The position numbers and the translations under genes were made by a program. Positions 7,156-63,864 of a stretch of DNA of 64,000 nucleotides are shown here, one piece after another. The stretch comes from Alphaproteobacteria bacterium (GTDB lineage: Bacteria > Pseudomonadota > Alphaproteobacteria > JAJTHO01 > CANGYM01). The DNA lies in contig JBILRW010000004.1 in NCBI GenBank assembly GCA_044372405.1, positions 7,171 through 71,170 on the forward strand, in the 5' to 3' direction. The first letter of the stretch is position 1. Each line of letters begins with the position of its first letter. A model generated the notes under the pieces. It was not told where the DNA came from and ran no database searches. It was given only the letters and a program-made list of their open reading frames with translations.

Positions 7156-7197
7156 GGGCGGGGAAAAAATCGTTTTGTGTCACTGTATTCCTTCAGA

Positions 7198-7316
7198 ACT
7201 TAGGCAGAACCTTCGTCATTGCGAGCGAAGAGAAGCAATCCAGAAACGCCGATACCAGAAAGACTGGATTGCCACGCCTCCTACGGAGGCTCGCAATGAC
7301 GTTCTGCGTAAGTCCT
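7198..7316. repeat. type-1 palindromic element, copy 2
   Basis: cgtcattgcgagcgaagagaagcaatccag...ctggattgccacgcctcctacggaggctcgcaatgacgttctgcgtaagtcct between fabZ and tRNA-Arg. Confidence 0.85.
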
Positions 7317-7397
7317 ATCCTTAGTCCCATACCAGATTATCATGGGGGGGACAAATGGTTTGTGGGGGCGTGCAGGGCTGTTTATTTTTGAAAAACC

Positions 7398-7474
7398 TGG
7401 CGCGCCCGAGAGGACTTGAACCCCTAACCTCCAGATTCGTAGTCTGGCACTCTATCCAGTTGAGCTACGGGCGC
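7398..7474 (-). tRNA. tRNA-Arg (anticodon ACG)
   Basis: reverse complement GCGCCCGTAGCTCAACTGGATAGAGTGCCAGACTACGAATCTGGAGGTTAGGGGTTCAAGTCCTCTCGGGCGCGCCA folds as cloverleaf with ACG anticodon. Confidence 0.9.
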
Positions 7475-16929: not shown

Positions 16930-17257
16930 AAAAGGCGGGGTCGGGGCAGCAGGATTTGTCCCCCGGGTCAAGGGCGAGACGCCAAAAAAGTTGCGTAGCA
17001 AAGCCCCGAAGGGGCGGTCTTTTTTGGTGCGAGGCGAAGCGGACCCTTGAGGCGGGGGACAAATTCTGCTGGGTGGGAGCCTTTTCCTTGTGGGCCGAAC
17101 GCGGCTCCCGCCCCCACATTCAGGTAACAGGTATCAGGTTGCAGGTAACAGAAAACCCCGTCCTCTGGGGCTTGTTATTTCAAGGATACGTCTTGCTCTA
17201 CTTTTTTTCCTGTCACCTGTCACCTGTCACCTGTCACCTGATTCACCCCGCCACGTT
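16930..17257. repeat. ~325-bp composite element copy A (conserved 190-bp core plus heptad-repeat hairpin)
   Basis: ~90 percent identical to 37874-38197; hairpin arms caggtaacaggtatcaggttgcaggtaacag (17120-17150) and cctgtcacctgtcacctgtcacctgtcacctg (17208-17239); internal long-range pairing cagcaggatttgtcccc with ggggacaaattctgctg. Confidence 0.85.
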
Positions 17258-24210: not shown

Positions 24211-24226
24211 AAGGCCCCTCTCAAAA

Positions 24227-24331
24227 CCTCAATGTTTCGTCTTTGCGAGCCTCCGTAGGAGGCGTGGCAATCCACTCTTTCCTTTGTCGGCCTTTCTGGA
24301 TTGCTTCGCTGCGCTCGCAATTGACGTTCTG
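24227..24331. repeat. type-1 palindromic element, copy 4
   Basis: cgtctttgcgagcctccgtaggaggcgtggcaatcca...ctggattgcttcgctgcgctcgcaattgacgttctgcgtaagtcct. Confidence 0.85.
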
Positions 24332-24430
24332 CGTAAGTCCTGAGACATAAAAAATGGCTCTGTTGTCTAACAGGGGCCTGGGCCACCATCTGTAACAAAA
24401 GTCACTTTTTGCAAAAAAAAGGTGAAAAAG

Positions 24431-24823
24431 TTAGCCGGCTTGCTGATCGCATACCTTTTGGACTTCCCGCCAGGTGTCGGCCATGGTGGTCATGGAATCA
24501 ATGACGGCATCGCAGATGTCGGGGTCATTTTTGATATTGATTTTGGCCAACATGGTTTGCAAAAACTGGTAATAGTTTTCCAGAACATCGCACATTTGAT
24601 CCGTGGCGGCGTTGCGATCCAGGCAGCTCATCAGGCCCGTCACCAAAGTCATACATTTTTCGGTTTCGTTGTAACGGGCTTCATATTGGTTGGCCAGGAC
24701 GTGTTCTTTGGCCTGTTTGATGTAGCTGACGCCTTTTTCCATCAGGCGGGCAATCTGCTCCCCCGGGGGCAGGCTGGTGACGTTGTTGGCCTTGTAGGCA
24801 CTCTGGGCGTATTTTTTGTGCAT
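24431..24823 (-). CDS. fliS: flagellar export chaperone FliS
   Basis: 130 aa from MHKKYAQSAYKANN...; four-helix pattern matching FliS (…LYxxxxxxLxxAN…W); upstream ORF extension is translated repeat. Confidence 0.7.
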   Translation of the reverse strand: MHKKYAQSAYKANNVTSLPPGEQIARLMEKGVSYIKQAKEHVLANQYEARYNETEKCMTLVTGLMSCLDRNAATDQMCDVLENYYQFLQTMLAKINIKNDPDICDAVIDSMTTMADTWREVQKVCDQQAG

Positions 24824-24865
24824 GGGGGTAAGGATACAGGAAGACAATAAAAAAAGGATTATTGC

Positions 24866-24995
24866 GGCACCTCTAAAAACCCCCAATTTTTCGTCATTGC
24901 AAGTCGCAACGCGACGAAGCAATCCAGGGTTTTCGGGGGCTGTGGCCTTTCTGGATTGCTTCGCTGCGCTCGCAAAGACGGTTTTTAGAGGTGCC
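24866..24995. repeat. type-1 palindromic element, copy 5 (both arms of gaagcaatccag type, outer IR ggcacctctaaaaac)
   Basis: tttcgtcattgcaagtcgcaacgcgacgaagcaatccag...ctggattgcttcgctgcgctcgcaaagacggtttttagaggtgcc. Confidence 0.8.
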
Positions 24996-37873: not shown

Positions 37874-38197
37874 GAAAAGGCGGGGCGGGGCAGCAGGATT
37901 TGTCCACCGGGTCAAGGGCGAGACGCCAAAAAAGTTGCGTAGCAAAGCCGCGCAGCGGCGGTCTTTTTTGGTGCGAGGCGAAGCGAACCCTTGAGGCGGT
38001 GGGCAAATTCTGCTGGGTGGGAGCCTTTTCCTTGTGGGCCGAACGCGGCTCCCGCCCCCACATTCAGGTAACAGGTTGCAGGTAACAGGTAACCCAGCCC
38101 TCTAGGGCTTGTTATTTCGCTGGTACGTCTTGTTCCACTCTTTTTTCCTGTTACCTGTTACCTGCAACCTGTTACCTGATTCACCCCGCCGCGTTTT
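37874..38197. repeat. ~325-bp composite element copy B
   Basis: ~90 percent identical to 16930-17257 including heptad hairpin arms 38065-38093 and 38147-38178. Confidence 0.85.
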
Positions 38198-41931: not shown

Positions 41932-42235
41932 CACACTCCCTGCTGGCGAGATTTTCAAATTCCGCCCAACTCATAAGGGGTGCAGGCCGGTCTGTGACAC
42001 AGTAAAAATATGATAACTGACTCTCAGTGAGGGTTAGGCACCCCACAAGCAGAGCCATCTGTTTCTGTGGTGTCTAGCACCAAAAACTGAGAAGCTGAGA
42101 ACAATCCTCAAGCGTAAATAAGAGCATCTGGTGGATGCCTTGGCGATTGCAGGCGATGAAGGACGTGCTAGGCTGCGATAAGCAGCGGGGAGGGGCCAAG
42201 ACCCTTTGATCCGCTGATTTCCGAATGGGGGAACC

Positions 42236-42335
42236 CACCTTTCAGGTGACAGGTGACGGGTGACAGGTAACAGGTTTTGCATTGCGCAGGCCTGTCACCT
42301 GATACCTGTAACCTGTCGCCTGATCTAGGTATTCT
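42236..42335 (+). other. 23S rRNA intervening sequence 1 (helix 9 position), heptad-repeat hairpin
   Basis: arms caggtgacaggtgacgggtgacaggtaacagg / cctgtcacctgatacctgtaacctgtcgcctg replace helix 9. Confidence 0.8.
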
Positions 42336-42729
42336 TTGGCTGAACACATAGGCCTTAGAAAGCAAACCCAGTGAACTGAAACATCTCAGTAGCTGGAGGA
42401 AAAGACATCAACCGAGATTCCGTAAGTAGTGGCGAGCGAACGCGGAACAGCCCAGTGCTCTCTCGAATGTAACTGGAACGACTTGGAAAAGTCGGCCATA
42501 GTGGGTGATAGCCCCGTACAGGTAAGAATAGAGAGAGACTCGAGTAGGGCGGGACACGTGAAATCCTGTCTGAACATGGGGGGACCACCCTCCAAGGCTA
42601 AATACTCGCAATCGACCGATAGTGAACCAGTACCGTGAGGGAAAGGCGAAAAGAACCCCCATAAGGGGAGTGAAATAGAACCTGAAACCGGATGCTTACA
42701 AGCAGTTGGAGCGGGCGCACCCGAGGGCT

Positions 42730-42860
42730 GCGCCCAGGTAACGGGTAGCAGGTAACAGGTAACAGGTAGAAACTTTCGGGTCATAAACTTTTGTTAAATT
42801 GATCTGAAATTTTTCTTCCTGTCACCTGTCACCTGTCACCTGTCACCTGGCCGCGCCCTC
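42730..42860 (+). other. 23S rRNA intervening sequence 2 (helix 25 position), heptad-repeat hairpin
   Basis: arms caggtaacgggtagcaggtaacaggtaacaggtag / cctgtcacctgtcacctgtcacctgtcacctgg with AT-rich 50-nt loop, at the helix-25 IVS site known from Salmonella. Confidence 0.8.
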
Positions 42861-43808
42861 CGGCGCGCCCGTGACAGCGTACCTCTTGTATAATGGGTCC
42901 GCGACTTAGTGTAGCAAGCAAGGTTAAGCCGATAGGTGGAGCCGAAGCGAAAGCGAGTGTGAATAGCGCGTTTAGTTTGCTGTATTAGACCCGAAACCAA
43001 GTGAGCTAACCATGGCCAGGCTGAAGGTTGGATAACACCAACTGAAGGGCCGAACCCACGTCTGTTGAAAAAGACGGGGATGAGCTGTGGTTAGGGGTGA
43101 AAGGCCAATCAAACTTGGAAATAGCTGGTTCTCCGCGAAAACTATTTAGGTAGTGCGTCAGACGAATACCATGGGGGGTAGAGCACTGAATCGGCTAGGG
43201 GGGCGCGAGCCTTACCAAACCGAATCAAACTCCGAATACCCATGAGTACTATCTGGCAGACAGGCATCGGGTGCTAAGGTCCGGTGCCGAGAGGGAAACA
43301 GCCCAGACCGCCATCTAAGGTCCCCAAGACTATGTTAAGTGGGAAAGGATGTGGGAAAGCCATGACAGCTAGGAGGTTGGCTTAGAAGCAGCCATCCTTT
43401 AAAGAAAGCGTAATAGCTCACTAGTCTAATCAAGCATTCCTGCGCCGAAGATGTAACGGGGCTCAAACATAGCACCGAAGATGCGGGCGCGCCTATGGCG
43501 CGCGGTAGCGGAGCGTTCCCTAAGCCGTCGAAGCAGTCCTGTCAGGGGCTGTGGAGGTATGGGAAGTGAGAATGCGGACATGAGTAGCGACAAACAGAGT
43601 GAGAGACTCTGTCGCCGAAAGCCCAAGGGTTCCTATCCAATGCTAATCAGGGTAGGGTTAGTCGATTCCTAAGGCGAGGCCGAAAGGCGTAGTCGATGGG
43701 AACACGGTTAATATTCCGTGACCTTTGGTCCGTGACGGATCGAAACGATTGTACTTTCTTATCGGATTGATAAGTGCAGTCCAACGGTTCCAGGAAATAA
43801 CGGACCAG

Positions 43809-44380
43809 CTTGGGATTGTTTAAGGGAAAAGAAAAAAGCACGCCAGAGGCGACGTGCTAGAAATTTATTCGTTGTTGCGTCGACGATCAATTTCGTCGAG
43901 TGCAGCGAATGTGATGCATCCTGGAAGCATCGAAATTGCCCCAGGAATGTTTAAAACAAAAAGAAAAAAGAATCTCCATCCTCCTTCAACAAGGATCATT
44001 TCTGCTCCTTGCTTTGGAAATAGGGAAATTCTGTCGGTTTTAAACTCCTTCTCCAGAAGAATTGCGGAGAAGTAAACAAAAAACACGACTGTAACTAAAG
44101 AAGAAACGACTAAATTTAGGCGTCTTTTTTTGTACTTATCCATGGTGTTAAGTTATTTAACTAAGGTTTATTTTGACATTATGCAGTGCAGTGCAGTGCA
44201 GTGCAGTGCAGTGACATTTGTCACATTACGAAAAATAATTTCCCTTAAACAATCCCAGGCGTTCAGGTGACAGGTAACGGGTAACAGGTGACAGGTTGTG
44301 GGTTACAGGTTATGGGTAGATTTTCTACCTATTTTCTGTTTCCTCTTCCTGTTACCTGTCTCCTGTTACCTGTTACCCGG
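43809..44380 (+). other. 23S rRNA intervening sequence 3 (helix 45 position), composite ~570 bp
   Basis: 19-bp inverted repeat cttgggattgtttaaggga / tcccttaaacaatcccagg bounds an AT-rich 410-bp module with a 92-codon ORF (43865-44143, minus) and a (GCAGT)5 microsatellite (44183-44207); followed by heptad hairpin 44263-44379. Confidence 0.8.
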
Positions 44381-44649
44381 ACAATGATCGTACCCGAAAC
44401 CGACACAGGTGGGCAGGTCGAGTAGACCAAGGCGCTTGAGAGAAGTATCCTGAAGGAACTCGGCAAATTGCTCCCGTAACTTCGGAAGAAGGGAGCCCGT
44501 CATGAAGGCAACTTTTTGGCGGGGTCACAAAAGAGGGGGTTGCGACTGTTTAACAAAAACACAGGACTCTGCGAAGTCGTAAGACGAAGTATAGGGTCTG
44601 ACGCCTGCCCGGTGCCGGAAGGTTAAGGAAGGATGTGCAAGCATTTGAC

Positions 44650-44729
<80 letters not shown>

Positions 44730-45170
44730 TGAATGGCGTAACGACATCCCCACTGTCTCCAGGATATACTCAGCGAAATTGAATTCCCCGTGAAGATGCG
44801 GGGTTCCCGCGGTCAGACGGAAAGACCCCGTGCACCTTTACTACAGCTTTACACTGGCTCTAGGAATATCATGTGTAGGATAGGTGGGAGACTTTGAAGC
44901 CTTGGCGCCAGCCAGGGTGGAGTCAACCTTGAAATACCACCCTTGATGTTTTTAGGGTCTAACCCAGGTCCGTGAATCCGGATCGGGGACCGTGTATGGT
45001 GGGTAGTTTGACTGGGGCGGTCGCCTCCCAAATGGTAACGGAGGCGCGCGAAGGTAAGCTCAGTACGGTCGGAAATCGTACGTCGAGTGCAATGGCATAA
45101 GCTTGCCTGACTGCGAGGCTGACAAGCCGAGCAGAGACGAAAGTCGGTCATAGTGATCCGGTGGTTCTTC

Positions 45171-45224
<54 letters not shown>

Positions 45225-45253
45225 AACGCCCAAGCGTCCACAGCGACGGCGTT

Positions 45254-45331
<78 letters not shown>

Positions 45332-45339
45332 TGGTACGT

Positions 45340-45380
<41 letters not shown>

Positions 45381-45688
45381 TGCCGTGGGTGTTTGATGAT
45401 TGAGAGGATTTGCCCCTAGTACGAGAGGACCGGGGTGAACGTACCTCTGGTGTACCGATTGTGGCGCCAGCCGCATCGTCGGGTAGCTATGTACGGAACG
45501 GATAACCGCTGAAAGCATCTAAGCGGGAAACCGGCCTCAAAACGAGTCATCGTAGAGCCGTAGTAGACCACTACGTTGATAGGTGGCGTGTGAAAGGGTG
45601 GTAACACCTGAAGCTAAGCCATACTAATCGCTCATCTCTCTTTTGGATTGTTCTCGCGTCTTATGTTTTAACAAAGACGCATCTCATG

Positions 45689-52593: not shown

Positions 52594-52667
52594 TGGAGGC
52601 TCGGAAGGGAATCGAACCCCCGTACAAGGATTTGCAGTCCTCTACATCACCACTCTGCCACCGAGCC
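52594..52667 (-). tRNA. tRNA-Cys (anticodon GCA)
   Basis: reverse complement GGCTCGGTGGCAGAGTGGTGATGTAGAGGACTGCAAATCCTTGTACGGGGGTTCGATTCCCTTCCGAGCCTCCA, anticodon loop CTGCAAA. Confidence 0.9.
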
Positions 52668-52720
52668 TTGCATGATTCATTTTATAAAGACCCTGCCGTT
52701 AAAAAGCAAGATGATTGTGG

Positions 52721-52836
52721 AATTTACGCAGAACGTCATTGCGAGCCTCCGTAGGAGGCGTGGCAATCCAGTCTTTTGTGGCGGCATTTCTGGGTTGCTT
52801 CGCTGCGCTCGCAATGACGAACACTTTGCGTAAGTC
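52721..52836. repeat. type-1 palindromic element, copy 8
   Basis: aatttacgcagaacgtcattgcgagcctccgtaggaggcgtggcaatccag...gggttgcttcgctgcgctcgcaatgacgaacactttgcgtaagtc. Confidence 0.85.
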
Positions 52837-52856
52837 ATTGATTGCAAAGGACTTTC

Positions 52857-52894
52857 TGTCACCTGTCACCTGTCACCTGTCCCCCGTCACCTGA
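52857..52894. repeat. tandem heptad array (TGTCACC)x5, single arm
   Basis: ctgtcacctgtcacctgtcacctgtcccccgtcacctg; supplies the last codons (VTGDR-stop) of coaBC. Confidence 0.85.
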
Positions 52895-61920: not shown

Positions 61921-62640
61921 CTAAAACACCCCCACCCCATAAATCACCCGATGAATCACATAAGGATACTGCACCAACATTTTGTTTTGGTTCAGGGCCA
62001 GGATTTCCTGGGGGCGTAGCGGTTCCCCCCGGGCGGGATGGGCGTGGGCGCCGATGCGCTTTAGGGACAAAAGAAAATCAGCCAAGGTTAACGGTTTTGT
62101 TGGGTAAATCTGGGTGGTAATGCTTAGGGCTGCGGGATGCAGCAGGGCCACCAGATCGTCCTTTGTGGGCCAGGGAATGATTTTATCGGCCCGGCCCAGG
62201 GCATAAAGCGCCTCATAAAACGGTGCAAAGCTGCCGGATCCCAGGGTTGTTAAAGCAATCACGCCCTGGGGTTGCAAAAACGCCCGCCAGGACAGGGGCG
62301 CCCGGGGGTCATCAAACCACGGCAAACTCATGCTGCTGGTGATGACATCAAAATGGGGACCCGGGGCAAAGGGCAGGGCCTCCGCCCGTCCCACCACACG
62401 CTGCGCCGGCCGCTGAATCTGTTGCAGCATGGCCAGGCTGGGATCCACGGCGGTATAGCGGATGGGATCCGGCAGGGCCTCCCCCACAAACCCCGTCCCC
62501 GCGCCTATATCACAAAGGCTTTGCAGATGCGGACATTGCCCCTGAACCCAATGGGCCAAATCCGTGGCCACCTGCCGCTGAATCAGGGCGTGGTCGTTAT
62601 AACGGGCGGCGGCGCTGTCAAAGGCTTGGGGGGGACTCAC
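61921..62640 (-). CDS. bioC: class I SAM-dependent methyltransferase, BioC-like (malonyl-ACP O-methyltransferase)
   Basis: YNDHALIQRQVA and CDIGAGTG motif I as in BioC; GTG start overlaps bioH-like stop (GTGA). Confidence 0.55.
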   Translation of the reverse strand: MSPPQAFDSAAARYNDHALIQRQVATDLAHWVQGQCPHLQSLCDIGAGTGFVGEALPDPIRYTAVDPSLAMLQQIQRPAQRVVGRAEALPFAPGPHFDVITSSMSLPWFDDPRAPLSWRAFLQPQGVIALTTLGSGSFAPFYEALYALGRADKIIPWPTKDDLVALLHPAALSITTQIYPTKPLTLADFLLSLKRIGAHAHPARGEPLRPQEILALNQNKMLVQYPYVIHRVIYGVGVF

Positions 62641-63374
62641 GCCAAGACCTCCAAGATTGTCTCTGCGCACCAGGCCGGATGGGTCAGGGGCAACAGATGA
62701 CTGTGGCCCGGATGGATTGCCACCGTTTGGGCGTGGCTCGCCCAGGGGTAGGTGATGATGGGATCGTTAGCGGAGGTTAAGGCACAGAAAATGGGCGGGG
62801 GAGAATTGGATTTATCCACAACGTCATTGCGAGCCTCCGCAGGAGGCGTGGCAATCCAGTCTTTCGGCTCGCTGCATTTCTGGATTGCTTCGCTACGCTC
62901 GCAATGACGAGGGTTATGTGTAAATCCTTGGGAAACCTCTTTTTGCATGGCTTTCAAGGCGTCCTGCAGTATGTTTTGGGGCGTGATGCACGGATAGGGT
63001 CCCCCAGCCCTTTCCTGAAAATCCCGTAACACCTGGGTGGGATTTTTCTCAAAACCCCGCGCCATGGCCTGTAAAACCCGTAGGGGAATCCCCCCGGGAT
63101 TTTGGGGACTGGCCACAAAACAGGGGGCGCTGTTAATGGCAATCCATCGGGCATGAGGGAGCGCCTGATACCCCGAAAAAAAGCCATAAGAATGCCCGAT
63201 CCACAGGTCGTAATCCTCATGTCTCATCCCTAAAAAATCCCAGTTTTCCATAGCTTCACAGTGCCAGGACGGCGGCAGATACCGGATCATCTCCCCCCAT
63301 ATGCCGGGGCCATAGCCCCAACCGTGCACCAGCAACACCCGCATACTATGCCCCAACATAACTGGCGCGACCAT
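62637..63374 (-). CDS. bioH: BioH-like alpha/beta-hydrolase (pimeloyl-ACP methyl ester esterase) carrying an in-frame type-1 element insertion
   Basis: LLVHGWG, nucleophile elbow GHSYG, SAPCF, then after the insert ANDPI (Asp) and HPGHSHLLP (His) collinear with E. coli BioH; residues CERSEAIQKCSEPKDWIATPPAEARNDV are the translated repeat. Confidence 0.65.
   Translation of the reverse strand: MVAPVMLGHSMRVLLVHGWGYGPGIWGEMIRYLPPSWHCEAMENWDFLGMRHEDYDLWIGHSYGFFSGYQALPHARWIAINSAPCFVASPQNPGGIPLRVLQAMARGFEKNPTQVLRDFQERAGGPYPCITPQNILQDALKAMQKEVSQGFTHNPRHCERSEAIQKCSEPKDWIATPPAEARNDVVDKSNSPPPIFCALTSANDPIITYPWASHAQTVAIHPGHSHLLPLTHPAWCAETILEVLA
62808..62927. repeat. type-1 palindromic element, copy 9, inside bioH-like CDS
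   Basis: cgtcattgcgagcctccgcaggaggcgtggcaatccag...ctggattgcttcgctacgctcgcaatgacga; no stop codon in the host reading frame. Confidence 0.85.
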
Positions 63375-63864
63375 ACAGCGGCGTGAGGGGGGCCGACGGA
63401 GCGTTGAGATAATCCACGGGCAGTAGTGGCCCCGAAAAAGAGTGCGCCGGCGGGTGATTCGTGGTTTCCATAACCTCAGAGGCATCGCCGCCGTAGCTGA
63501 GGAAAACCTGATCCTTATAAAACGGCAAAATCATGGGTTGATCCGGCGGGATGACCTGCTGATGCAGGCGAAACCAACAGACACGCAGCGCATCAAAGGC
63601 ATTGACGCCCTGAGCCTGCCAACCGGAGAGCTTCAGCGCCACCCCCACCGCCAACCCGATACGAATGCCGGTAAAAGACCCCGGCCCCCGCACAATACGA
63701 ATGGTTCCTTGACGAAGGATTCCCTGATCCTTATCGGTCAGCAAAGCTTGCAACGTGGGTAATAAGGTTTCGGCCAGGCCCCGTTGTTCTAAAAAGAGAG
63801 GCTCATCCTCCCCCCTGACCATAAAGGGGGGTTGGGACACCGTGTTAATCAACACATCAGGCAC
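63346..63864 (-). CDS. tsaB: tRNA threonylcarbamoyladenosine biosynthesis protein TsaB (YeaZ family)
   Basis: 172 aa; RGLAETLLPTLQALL...RGPGSFTGIRIGLAVGVALKL matches the TsaB core; stop abuts bioH-like start. Confidence 0.65.
   Translation of the reverse strand: MPDVLINTVSQPPFMVRGEDEPLFLEQRGLAETLLPTLQALLTDKDQGILRQGTIRIVRGPGSFTGIRIGLAVGVALKLSGWQAQGVNAFDALRVCWFRLHQQVIPPDQPMILPFYKDQVFLSYGGDASEVMETTNHPPAHSFSGPLLPVDYLNAPSAPLTPLYGRASYVGA

Follow-up and report, generated by a model that had tools for sequence, protein, structure and literature searches.

The subject of this work is a BioH-like alpha/beta-hydrolase gene whose coding sequence holds a palindromic, transposon-like element. The gene lies in a stretch of 64,000 nucleotides, referred to throughout as the window, from an Alphaproteobacteria bacterium (NCBI GenBank assembly GCA_044372405.1, contig JBILRW010000004.1, positions 7,171 to 71,170 of the forward strand). 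The host belongs to an uncultured, free-living lineage of freshwater alphaproteobacterial metagenome-assembled genomes (MAGs). The element is a miniature inverted-repeat transposable element (MITE) of 124 bp, and we consider it probable that it transposed in frame into the gene, where it now encodes a disordered excursion of about 43 residues at the hinge of an enzyme that is still working.

The locus and its palindromic element

The gene and the parts of the element within it are listed here by window position, with the evidence on which each is based.

62637..63344, minus strand: BioH-like alpha/beta-hydrolase gene, 235 aa, putative pimeloyl-ACP methyl ester esterase (open reading frame (ORF) listing, profiles)
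62806..62929, minus strand: 124-bp MITE, or 'type-1' element (inverted repeats, RNA fold, family alignments, duplication analysis, absence from orthologues)
62930..62934, minus strand: 5-bp target-site duplication, gene-upstream copy, TTCCC in gene orientation (fixed-offset analysis)
62801..62805, minus strand: 5-bp target-site duplication, gene-downstream copy, TTCTC in gene orientation (fixed-offset analysis)
62913..62929, minus strand: gene-5' terminal inverted repeat AAGGATTTACACATAAC, diverged from the consensus CAGGACTTACGCAGAAC (family analysis)
62806..62822, plus strand: gene-3' terminal inverted repeat TTGGATTTATCCACAAC, given in plus-strand orientation (inverted repeats, family analysis)
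62897..62926, minus strand: unit B, resembling a repetitive extragenic palindrome (REP), CGTCATTGCGAGCGTAGCGAAGCAATCCAG in gene orientation, with a CGTC head and a CCAG tail, forming the gene-5' arm of the palindrome
62822..62859, plus strand: REP-like unit A, CGTCATTGCGAGCCTCCGCAGGAGGCGTGGCAATCCAG in plus-strand orientation, with an inner CCTCC-GCAG-GAGG hairpin, forming the other arm

A preliminary description of this DNA had placed a 120-bp palindromic element at 62808-62927. A palindrome is indeed found there, and these positions correspond to the body of the MITE, which is built of nested inverted repeats. The inner arms CGTCATTGCGAGC and GCTCGCAATGACG are complementary at 13 of 13 positions, a second pair of arms (GCGTGGCAATCCAG and CTGGATTGCTTCGC) is 86% complementary, and an outer pair of 15 nt is 80% complementary. 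When folded as RNA of the gene strand, the palindrome reaches -56.6 kcal/mol (z = -6.8), a stability matched by none of 200 shuffled sequences, and its 13-mer arm has 15 matches in the window where 1.4 are expected. The repeats, the fold and the number of copies, nine in the window, therefore mark the palindrome as real and not a product of chance. The 120-bp unit needs refinement in one respect: its precise form is a MITE of 124 bp that carries REP-like units and is flanked by a 5-bp duplication, whose two copies at the esterase locus (TTCCC and TTCTC) agree at four of five positions.

The interior of the element consists of a tail-to-tail pair of CGTC-ATTGC...GCAAT-CCAG units, with the CGTC heads facing outward in all dimers. 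Element and duplication together amount to 129 bp, and hence to 43 added codons. Three of the six frames of this copy are free of stops, and the only ORFs are frames that read through it.

Evidence for an insertion from orthologues and alleles

Comparison with orthologues identifies the segment as an addition. At the junction, the insert-free orthologues P0004-P0007 (201-214 aa, 59-65% identical in alignment) read MQKE-SFPTA-PLFCAL, where the window protein reads MQKE-VSQ[GFTHNPRHCERSEAIQKCSEPKDWIATPPAEARNDVVDKS]NSPP-PIFCAL. Excision of 62808-62927 gives MQKEVSQ/NSPPPIFCAL, while the MITE model (124 bp plus the 5-bp duplication) gives the pre-insertion junction MQKEVSPPPIFCAL; the junction of the insert-free orthologue is MQKESFPTAPLFCAL. 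By this comparison the insertion comprises 40-43 codons, and the preliminary figure of about 29 added residues has to be abandoned.

The segment is likewise missing from more distant relatives. A scan of 185,579 species-representative GTDB genomes, a set that excludes the window's own species, returned five orthologous loci (about 50% identity), all without the insert; all five are 'Alphaproteobacteria bacterium' MAGs, several of them with lake-sample names. An exhaustive phmmer search against 1.84 billion cluster representatives gave 298 matches. The members of the family are about 200-220 aa long and align to the query in two parts with the insert between them, so that family homology is present on both sides of it, as had been proposed. 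In an alignment of 101 sequences, 21-30 residues separate the anchor residues L130 and D194 in 98 members, compared with 63 in the window protein.

The same insert is confined to alleles from four other metagenome assemblies, which range from near-identical to about 93% identical. One of these (L135) encodes an identical protein. Another (L130) differs at 16 of 1003 nucleotides, and the one difference that falls inside the element disrupts a stem pair. The flanks of a third (L136) are 5-10% diverged at the nucleotide level. The fourth (L002), known from one short contig, has five substitutions relative to the window and has lost one arm of the palindrome through an in-frame deletion of 63 bp. 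The reading frame is intact in L130, L135 and L136, and misassembly is excluded because independent assemblies carry the insert. The preliminary description had named two observations that would speak against it, distant orthologues with the same segment and a frameshift or stop on resequencing. Both were looked for, the one among P0004-P0007, the five MAG loci and the alignment, the other in the independent assemblies, and what was found was insert-free orthologues and frames that are unbroken.

Between the window and L136, a tract of 188 nt (62812-62999), composed of 70 nt of coding sequence and most of the element, is identical. It is probably a recombination tract: because the identity runs 70 nt outside the element, recombination is favoured over selection on the hairpin, and the notion that the L136 comparison reveals nucleotide-level selection on the insert was dropped.

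The MITE family

A search of the window by nhmmer with the 120-bp sequence finds nine copies of the element, in both orientations and at unrelated loci. The copies are 106-124 bp long and contain no transposase gene, which places them well within the size range of MITEs (less than about 300 bp). The terminal inverted repeats measure 15-17 nt, and their consensus CAGGACTTACGCAGAAC has nine matches in the window, compared with 0.9 expected; together with its complement it bounds five copies in the window, a copy in L008 whose right end is truncated and a copy in L134. The five full-length window copies were aligned, and ends and duplications were measured at a fixed offset of 4 nt from the ACTTA/TAAGT cores. 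Perfect 5-bp direct repeats flank four of the seven copies (TCCTT, GGATT, CAATC and ACCAG; chance 0.0014 per site). Terminal repeats, duplication and dispersed copies are, on this sequence evidence, the anatomy of a MITE, and the element at the esterase locus is 88-94% identical to intergenic copies of the family.

Beyond the window the terminal repeats are rare, being found only in L008, which comes from a related MAG, and in L134. The REP-like dimer at the core is widespread, with occurrences on at least 120 metagenome contigs and at 23 places on one Novosphingobium megaplasmid. Because of this difference in distribution, the element is best read as modular, with lineage-restricted transposon ends around a cosmopolitan REP-like dimer. 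Across all copies, conservation is highest in the REP-like arms, while terminal repeats and loop vary. Both arms show the CGTC signature of head, stem and tail, as do the metagenome copies, among which unit B is the commonest arm; variants place different small GC hairpins in the position of unit A. The same terminal repeats that enclose the REP dimer in the window enclose an unrelated interior in L134.

Element and duplication add up to a multiple of three in six of the seven copies (window, L008 and L134), which fall into length classes of 124, 118 and 106 bp. A gene entered by a member of this family would therefore keep its reading frame in most cases. The preliminary description had likened the element to those of Rickettsia, which insert into coding sequences and are tolerated as surface loops. 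In-frame behaviour of this kind is borne out for the esterase copy only, the one intragenic copy among the nine in the window. Other copies in the window lie in open frames that contain FliS, DUF218 and DUF2155, but always on the 5' side of the domain and probably ahead of the true start, and were set aside. Among the 124 metagenome core copies listed, 26 lie in long open frames, including some upstream of ADH, UDG and GT28_C domains; none of the ten best open-frame copies splits a Pfam domain, and in-frame insertion as a habit of the whole family was rejected. The resemblance to Rickettsia palindromic elements (RPEs) is therefore limited to what happened at this locus.

Several further observations concern individual copies. 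The copy at 24225-24345 (c24238) is chimeric, with a type-1 terminal repeat on one side and on the other the flank CTCTAAAACCYCAATTTTT, which is common to the copies at 24880 and 32075. This copy and that at 24880-24995 bracket a 159-aa ORF (24371-24847) next to fliS. A tRNA gene (7401-7474 and 52597-52667, respectively) is found no more than about 100 nt from each of the copies at 7194-7317 and 52718-52839.

The element also leaves traces in protein databases. A search of a database of 5.8 billion proteins with the 40-aa insert peptide returned four short ORFs only, a result that says nothing on intragenic copies. Protein matches to the element alone are short ORFs. Two called proteins, P0015 (ENA, 179 aa) and P0009, are tandem translated copies of the REP-like core, in which an RHCERSEAI peptide is repeated three times, its first two occurrences being followed by WIASSQELLAMT; public databases thus contain spurious ORF calls that stem from the core. 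Peptides of the CERSEAIQ, VIASAAKQSR and LAMT types are found in the spurious short 'hypothetical proteins' that result. When the literature was searched by sequence, the only matches to the core arm, to the terminal repeat or to peptides typical of the element were unrelated primers.

The host gene and its operon

The esterase gene is flanked on either side by a gene of the same strand:

63346..63864, minus strand: TsaB-like gene directly upstream, with its stop 1 nt before the esterase ATG (ORF listing, profiles)
61921..62640, minus strand: BioC-like methyltransferase gene, with a GTG start that overlaps the esterase stop (GTGA) (TIGR02072 BioC)

The preliminary description took the host gene to be an uninterrupted ORF at 62637-63374. 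The minus-strand frame is open as stated, but a start at 63374 is unlikely, because the ATG at 63344 (MRVLLVHGWGYG) lies 1 nt past the stop of the tsaB-like gene and agrees with the starts of orthologues. At the other end, the overlap of the bioC GTG with the esterase stop implies translational coupling, and the same 4-nt overlap is called in L002, L001 and L136. The order recO, tsaB-like gene, esterase is identical in L001 and L004. The BioC-like protein scores 99.7 bits on TIGR02072 BioC, which is under the equivalog cut-off.

Assignment of the esterase to BioH, which had been suggested, is supported as to family resemblance and fails as to membership of the equivalog. The protein scores 24 bits on Pfam Abhydrolase_6, below the cut-off, and 24.5 bits on TIGR01738, the BioH equivalog, where the cut-off is 206.95. 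The insert itself is not the cause of these scores; low values are common to the orthologues without the insert, for which no Pfam domain is precomputed. The profile built from 101 family members matches the BioH structures 6k5e, 4nmw, 1m33 and 4etw first (E ~1e-24), a Foldseek search with the AlphaFold2 model described below matches the hydrolases DAD2, BioH and KAI2, and relatives lie in operons of the form bioF-esterase-bioC and bioF-esterase-bioC-bioD-bioA. The catalytic residues that had been named hold up well: all 101 aligned sequences have S52 (GHSYG) and D194 (NDPI), while H216 (SHLLP) is kept by at least 90% of them and by every member of an alignment of 12 sequences. The gene thus combines an alpha/beta-hydrolase fold, a Ser-Asp-His triad and a place beside bioC in a biotin operon. 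Since BioH structures are the first matches of the family profile and relatives sit in bio operons, 'BioH-like pimeloyl-ACP methyl ester esterase' is a reasonable functional reading of a protein that is not a member of the BioH equivalog.

Predicted structure of the insert

An AlphaFold2 model built from the 101-sequence alignment has a predicted local distance difference test (pLDDT) score of 86 and a predicted template modelling (pTM) score of 0.81. The core exceeds a pLDDT of 90, and residues 142-168 fall below 50. The insert is modelled as a low-confidence coil between helix 123-133, the last helix of the cap, and strand 185-191, which is beta7 and lies just before Asp194. This agrees with the earlier placement, which had the nucleophile half of the fold on one side of the insert and the Asp/His half on the other. 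As for the external hairpin loop that structure prediction was to check for, the model gives an unstructured excursion and does not show such a loop. Because a low-confidence coil stands beside a confident core, the simplest view of the insert is that it is most likely a disordered surface excursion at the hinge between cap and core.

Parallel palindromic inserts in the esterase family

Three other members of the esterase family carry palindromic inserts of their own. The closest sister orthologue (L001, JGI 3300045366; flank dS 0.37) has a different palindrome in frame in the same linker, at 2100-2204 of its contig. Units of the type CCCTCTCCC/GGGAGAGGG make up its length of about 105 nt, and its fold has an energy of -82 kcal/mol (z = -4.6). 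Its insertion point, judged by eye, adjoins the same TTCTC pentanucleotide, and its cluster mates keep the insert; the CCCTCTCCC/GGGAGAGGG palindrome was looked for in the window and is absent there. A third palindrome, of 142 bp, lies in frame at the same cap-to-beta7 loop of L131 (1196-1337; JGI 3300073844). Its 52-nt arms are 83% complementary and it folds at -110.6 kcal/mol (z = -9.2), and its host gene is a BioH-like family member of about 30% identity in a bioF-esterase-bioC operon. In L134 (1324-1429; Logan SRR14092362), an element of 106 bp lies in frame in the cap domain of P0142, the product of a distant BioH-like gene. This element has the terminal repeats of the window MITE (CAGGACTTACGCAAAA...TTTTGCGTAAGTCCTA) but not its interior, and the ACCAG duplication that flanks it is perfect. 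The organism has a GC content of 47% and a bioF-esterase-bioC cluster whose BioC is 27% identical to that of the window. An insert of 34 aa elsewhere in the fold of P0066 was considered as a further case and rejected, as it is not palindromic (z = -0.6).

Palindromic in-frame inserts are thus present in four independent lineages among 101 family representatives, a frequency that looks high when taken by itself and not against other families. Three unrelated elements (window, L001 and L131) occupy the same hinge, and the insertion points in the window and L001 are apparently a few nucleotides apart. It is possible, although we would not call it probable, that the cap region of the esterase is a recurrent landing site at which selfish palindromes are turned into protein, with the hinge as the main site and the MITE frame-neutral by design. 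Were this so, the landing site would be a free-living counterpart of the Rickettsia system that could be followed at the population level; full, point-mutated and 63-bp-deleted alleles co-occur in lake metagenomes.

Proposed mechanism and alternative explanations

The steps by which the present gene may have arisen can be divided into mobilisation, insertion and persistence. A transposase acting in trans would mobilise the non-autonomous 124-bp MITE, which would transpose into TTCTC, within the codons that link the last cap helix to beta7. The gene would remain open because 129 bp make up 43 codons and entered a frame without a stop, and it would encode about 43 extra hydrophilic residues. A frame-breaking insertion at this site would uncouple the overlapping bioC, for which reason only an in-frame, stop-free insertion could persist. 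As bioC is translationally coupled, part of the in-frame pressure may stem from it and not from the esterase. The intact triad, the frame and the ratio of nonsynonymous to synonymous substitution rates (dN/dS) suggest that the esterase still works.

Several points count against this account. Two of the seven copies have no clear duplication (matches of 3/5 and 1/5). An autonomous element bounded by these terminal repeats did not come to light, and the 64-kb window holds no distant pair of repeats. The dN/dS values outside the insert, 0.19 compared with L001 and 0.26 compared with the insert-free L003, cover the time before as well as after insertion, and alleles with the insert differ too little among themselves to gauge constraint after it. 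A low pLDDT means that a structure is unpredictable, not that the segment is exposed and harmless, and the frame could be held solely for the coupling of bioC.

The last of these points leads to the view that the gene is a young pseudogene, which the insertion inactivated and whose frame is open by chance or solely for read-through to bioC. We judge this unlikely. The GTGA overlap with bioC does select for the frame independently of esterase function, and the insert residues 142-168 are those with a pLDDT below 50. A score below the Pfam and TIGR cut-offs would also suit a decaying protein, but such scores are common to the insert-free orthologues. Other esterase families could stand in for the enzyme in biotin synthesis, where BioH, BioG, BioK, BioJ and BioV are alternatives to one another. 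Against loss of function, close orthologues agree without exception at the triad and at about 80 further positions, the dN/dS values of 0.19-0.26 lie in the range of the insert-free L003 comparisons, and the insert allele persists with flanks that are 5-10% diverged and with no stop or frameshift. Three other lineages, moreover, keep palindromic inserts in intact genes of the family.

We attach a still lower probability to the view that the hairpin itself is useful in the tsaB-bioH-bioC transcript, where it might bind a protein, be a target of RNase or slow the translation of bioC. A function at the RNA level is supposed for REPs (PMC3733652), and the strong fold reported above, the conservation of the arms over terminal repeats and loop, and the small inner hairpins of differing sequence in metagenome variants are all compatible with such a role. 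So is the identity of the element and 70 nt upstream of it in the diverged L136, except that the identical tract reaches well outside the element and is a better fit to recombination. The segregating L002 allele, on the other hand, has lost a whole arm of the palindrome, the substitution in L130 breaks a stem pair, and the insert-free orthologues have the same operon. An intrinsic terminator or a promoter-like site was looked for in 62500-63500 and none was found.

That there was no insertion, either because the segment is ancestral and was lost elsewhere or because repeats were wrongly joined in assembly, is effectively refuted and may be given next to no weight. Repeats are a classic source of misassembly in metagenomes, and the L002 contig differs by exactly a piece of repeat; five independent assemblies from different samples nevertheless have the same junctions. 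As for ancestry, 98 of the 101 homologues are without any segment at this place, and the segment is 88-94% identical to intergenic copies and flanked by a 5-bp duplication. The in-frame transposition of a MITE into a gene that goes on working is therefore the explanation that we retain as probable.

Significance

The colonisation of genes by in-frame palindromes is best documented in Rickettsia, an obligate intracellular organism under relaxed selection. The present locus is a clear-cut instance from a free-living alphaproteobacterium of fresh water, and the enzyme concerned is small and its fold well understood. The site is available from public metagenomes in empty, filled and partly deleted form, together with parallel insertions that arose independently, which makes for a convenient natural system in which to ask how mobile hairpins become protein loops and which loops tolerate them. 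A further question is whether coupling to a downstream gene filters the insertions that survive. Expression of the insert-bearing gene would be marked by reads or peptides spanning CERSEAIQKCSEPKDWIATPPAEARNDV. There is also a consequence for annotation, in that the insert splits homology matches in two and the element spawns spurious short 'hypothetical proteins'.

Other repeats and the 23S rRNA gene of the window

A second family of repeats in the window consists of tandem heptamers, (CAGGTRA)n, arranged as palindromes, with 27 matches where none is expected. They are found at 2893-2935, 17121-17240, 38079-38164 and 52858-52879, and the same motif recurs in the 23S rRNA gene, which holds three hairpins of CAGGTGA/CAGGTAA heptamer repeats (42243-42315, 42749-42849 and 44261-44382). 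The 23S rRNA gene (42108-45648) spans 3541 nt, compared with 2925 nt for the Rfam model, the extra length being divided between the 5' half (about 170 nt) and the 3' half (about 450 nt). A pair of 22-nt inverted repeats (43808-43829 and 44239-44260) brackets about 410 nt of the gene. No 5S rRNA follows the 23S gene, and no 16S rRNA is present in the window.

Comparison with known systems

The esterase shares with BioH of the E. coli type (PDB 1m33, 4etw, 4nmw and 6k5e) an alpha/beta-hydrolase fold, a helical cap, a Ser-Asp-His triad and a G-x-S-x-G elbow. It adjoins bioC, and its relatives lie within bioF...bioC-bioD-bioA operons. It differs in that the family is about 200-220 aa long with a shorter cap, while BioH has 256 aa, and the window protein has the 43-aa insert in addition.

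RPEs, in the work of Ogata et al. (2000, 2002) as relayed by PMC10969869 and PMC3733652, are palindromes of about 100-150 bp that can lie in frame in genes of housekeeping or metabolism as well as between genes; in R. conorii, according to the same two sources, nearly half of them were reported as intragenic. The element described here is likewise a palindrome of about 100-150 bp that lies in frame in a metabolic gene and adds tens of residues where the fold can accommodate them; an in-frame palindrome in a conserved ORF at such a site is seen for this copy only. It also occurs in intergenic DNA, and its arms share the CGTC signature of head and tail with RPE-4 and RPE-6, which are CGTC-tagged REPs and are included in that superfamily (Di Nocera et al. 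2013, PMC3733652). Unlike RPEs, it has another sequence, clear terminal inverted repeats and a 5-bp target duplication, its host is a free-living freshwater alphaproteobacterial lineage and not Rickettsia, a single one of its nine local copies is intragenic, so that a high intragenic fraction is lacking, and its peptide gives no evidence of conservation as a protein module throughout the family. The REP-encoded peptides in the supplement of PMC3733652, where RPE-4 and RPE-6 appear as CGTC-4 and CGTC-1, do not include the peptides of this element. Judged from these supplement peptides and from the host, the element is not a member of the RPE family.

The resemblance to CGTC-tagged REPs (PMC3733652) extends to the unpaired CGTC head, the A-T and T-A first pairs of the stem, the AATCCA(G) end and the inverted pairs able to form one long hairpin. 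Both are abundant, mainly alphaproteobacterial and mostly intergenic, and occasional intragenic copies are documented for CGTC-tagged REP families (PMC3733652). The stems differ: in CGTC-1 to CGTC-4 a contiguous stem of 8-9 bp closes a loop of 4-5 nt, whereas unit B has 5 bp and an interior of 12 nt, and unit A has two 5-bp stems with an internal loop between them and a GNAG tetraloop. Dimers of CGTC REPs are predominantly head-to-head and rarely tail-to-tail (PMC3733652), while those described here are tail-to-tail. A further difference is that the dimer here is the cargo of a transposon-like element with terminal repeats and a duplication. The dimers also bear a likeness to REPINs, reportedly described by Bertels and Rainey in 2011 as REPs paired in inverted orientation.

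The terminal-repeat sequence has no relevant match in the searchable literature. As a class, however, bacterial MITEs that make in-frame fusions are well represented by intragenic ERIC elements, QMITE1 of Coxiella and the MITEs of Anabaena (PMC10969869). Like these, the element is small and non-coding, has terminal inverted repeats, a target-site duplication and many copies, and contains open frames that allow fusion. Unlike them, it has a modular interior, and element and duplication form a multiple of three in six of seven copies. In-frame insertion of palindromes as such is already known from RPEs, from intragenic REPs and from intragenic ERIC and other MITEs (PMC10969869, PMC3733652).

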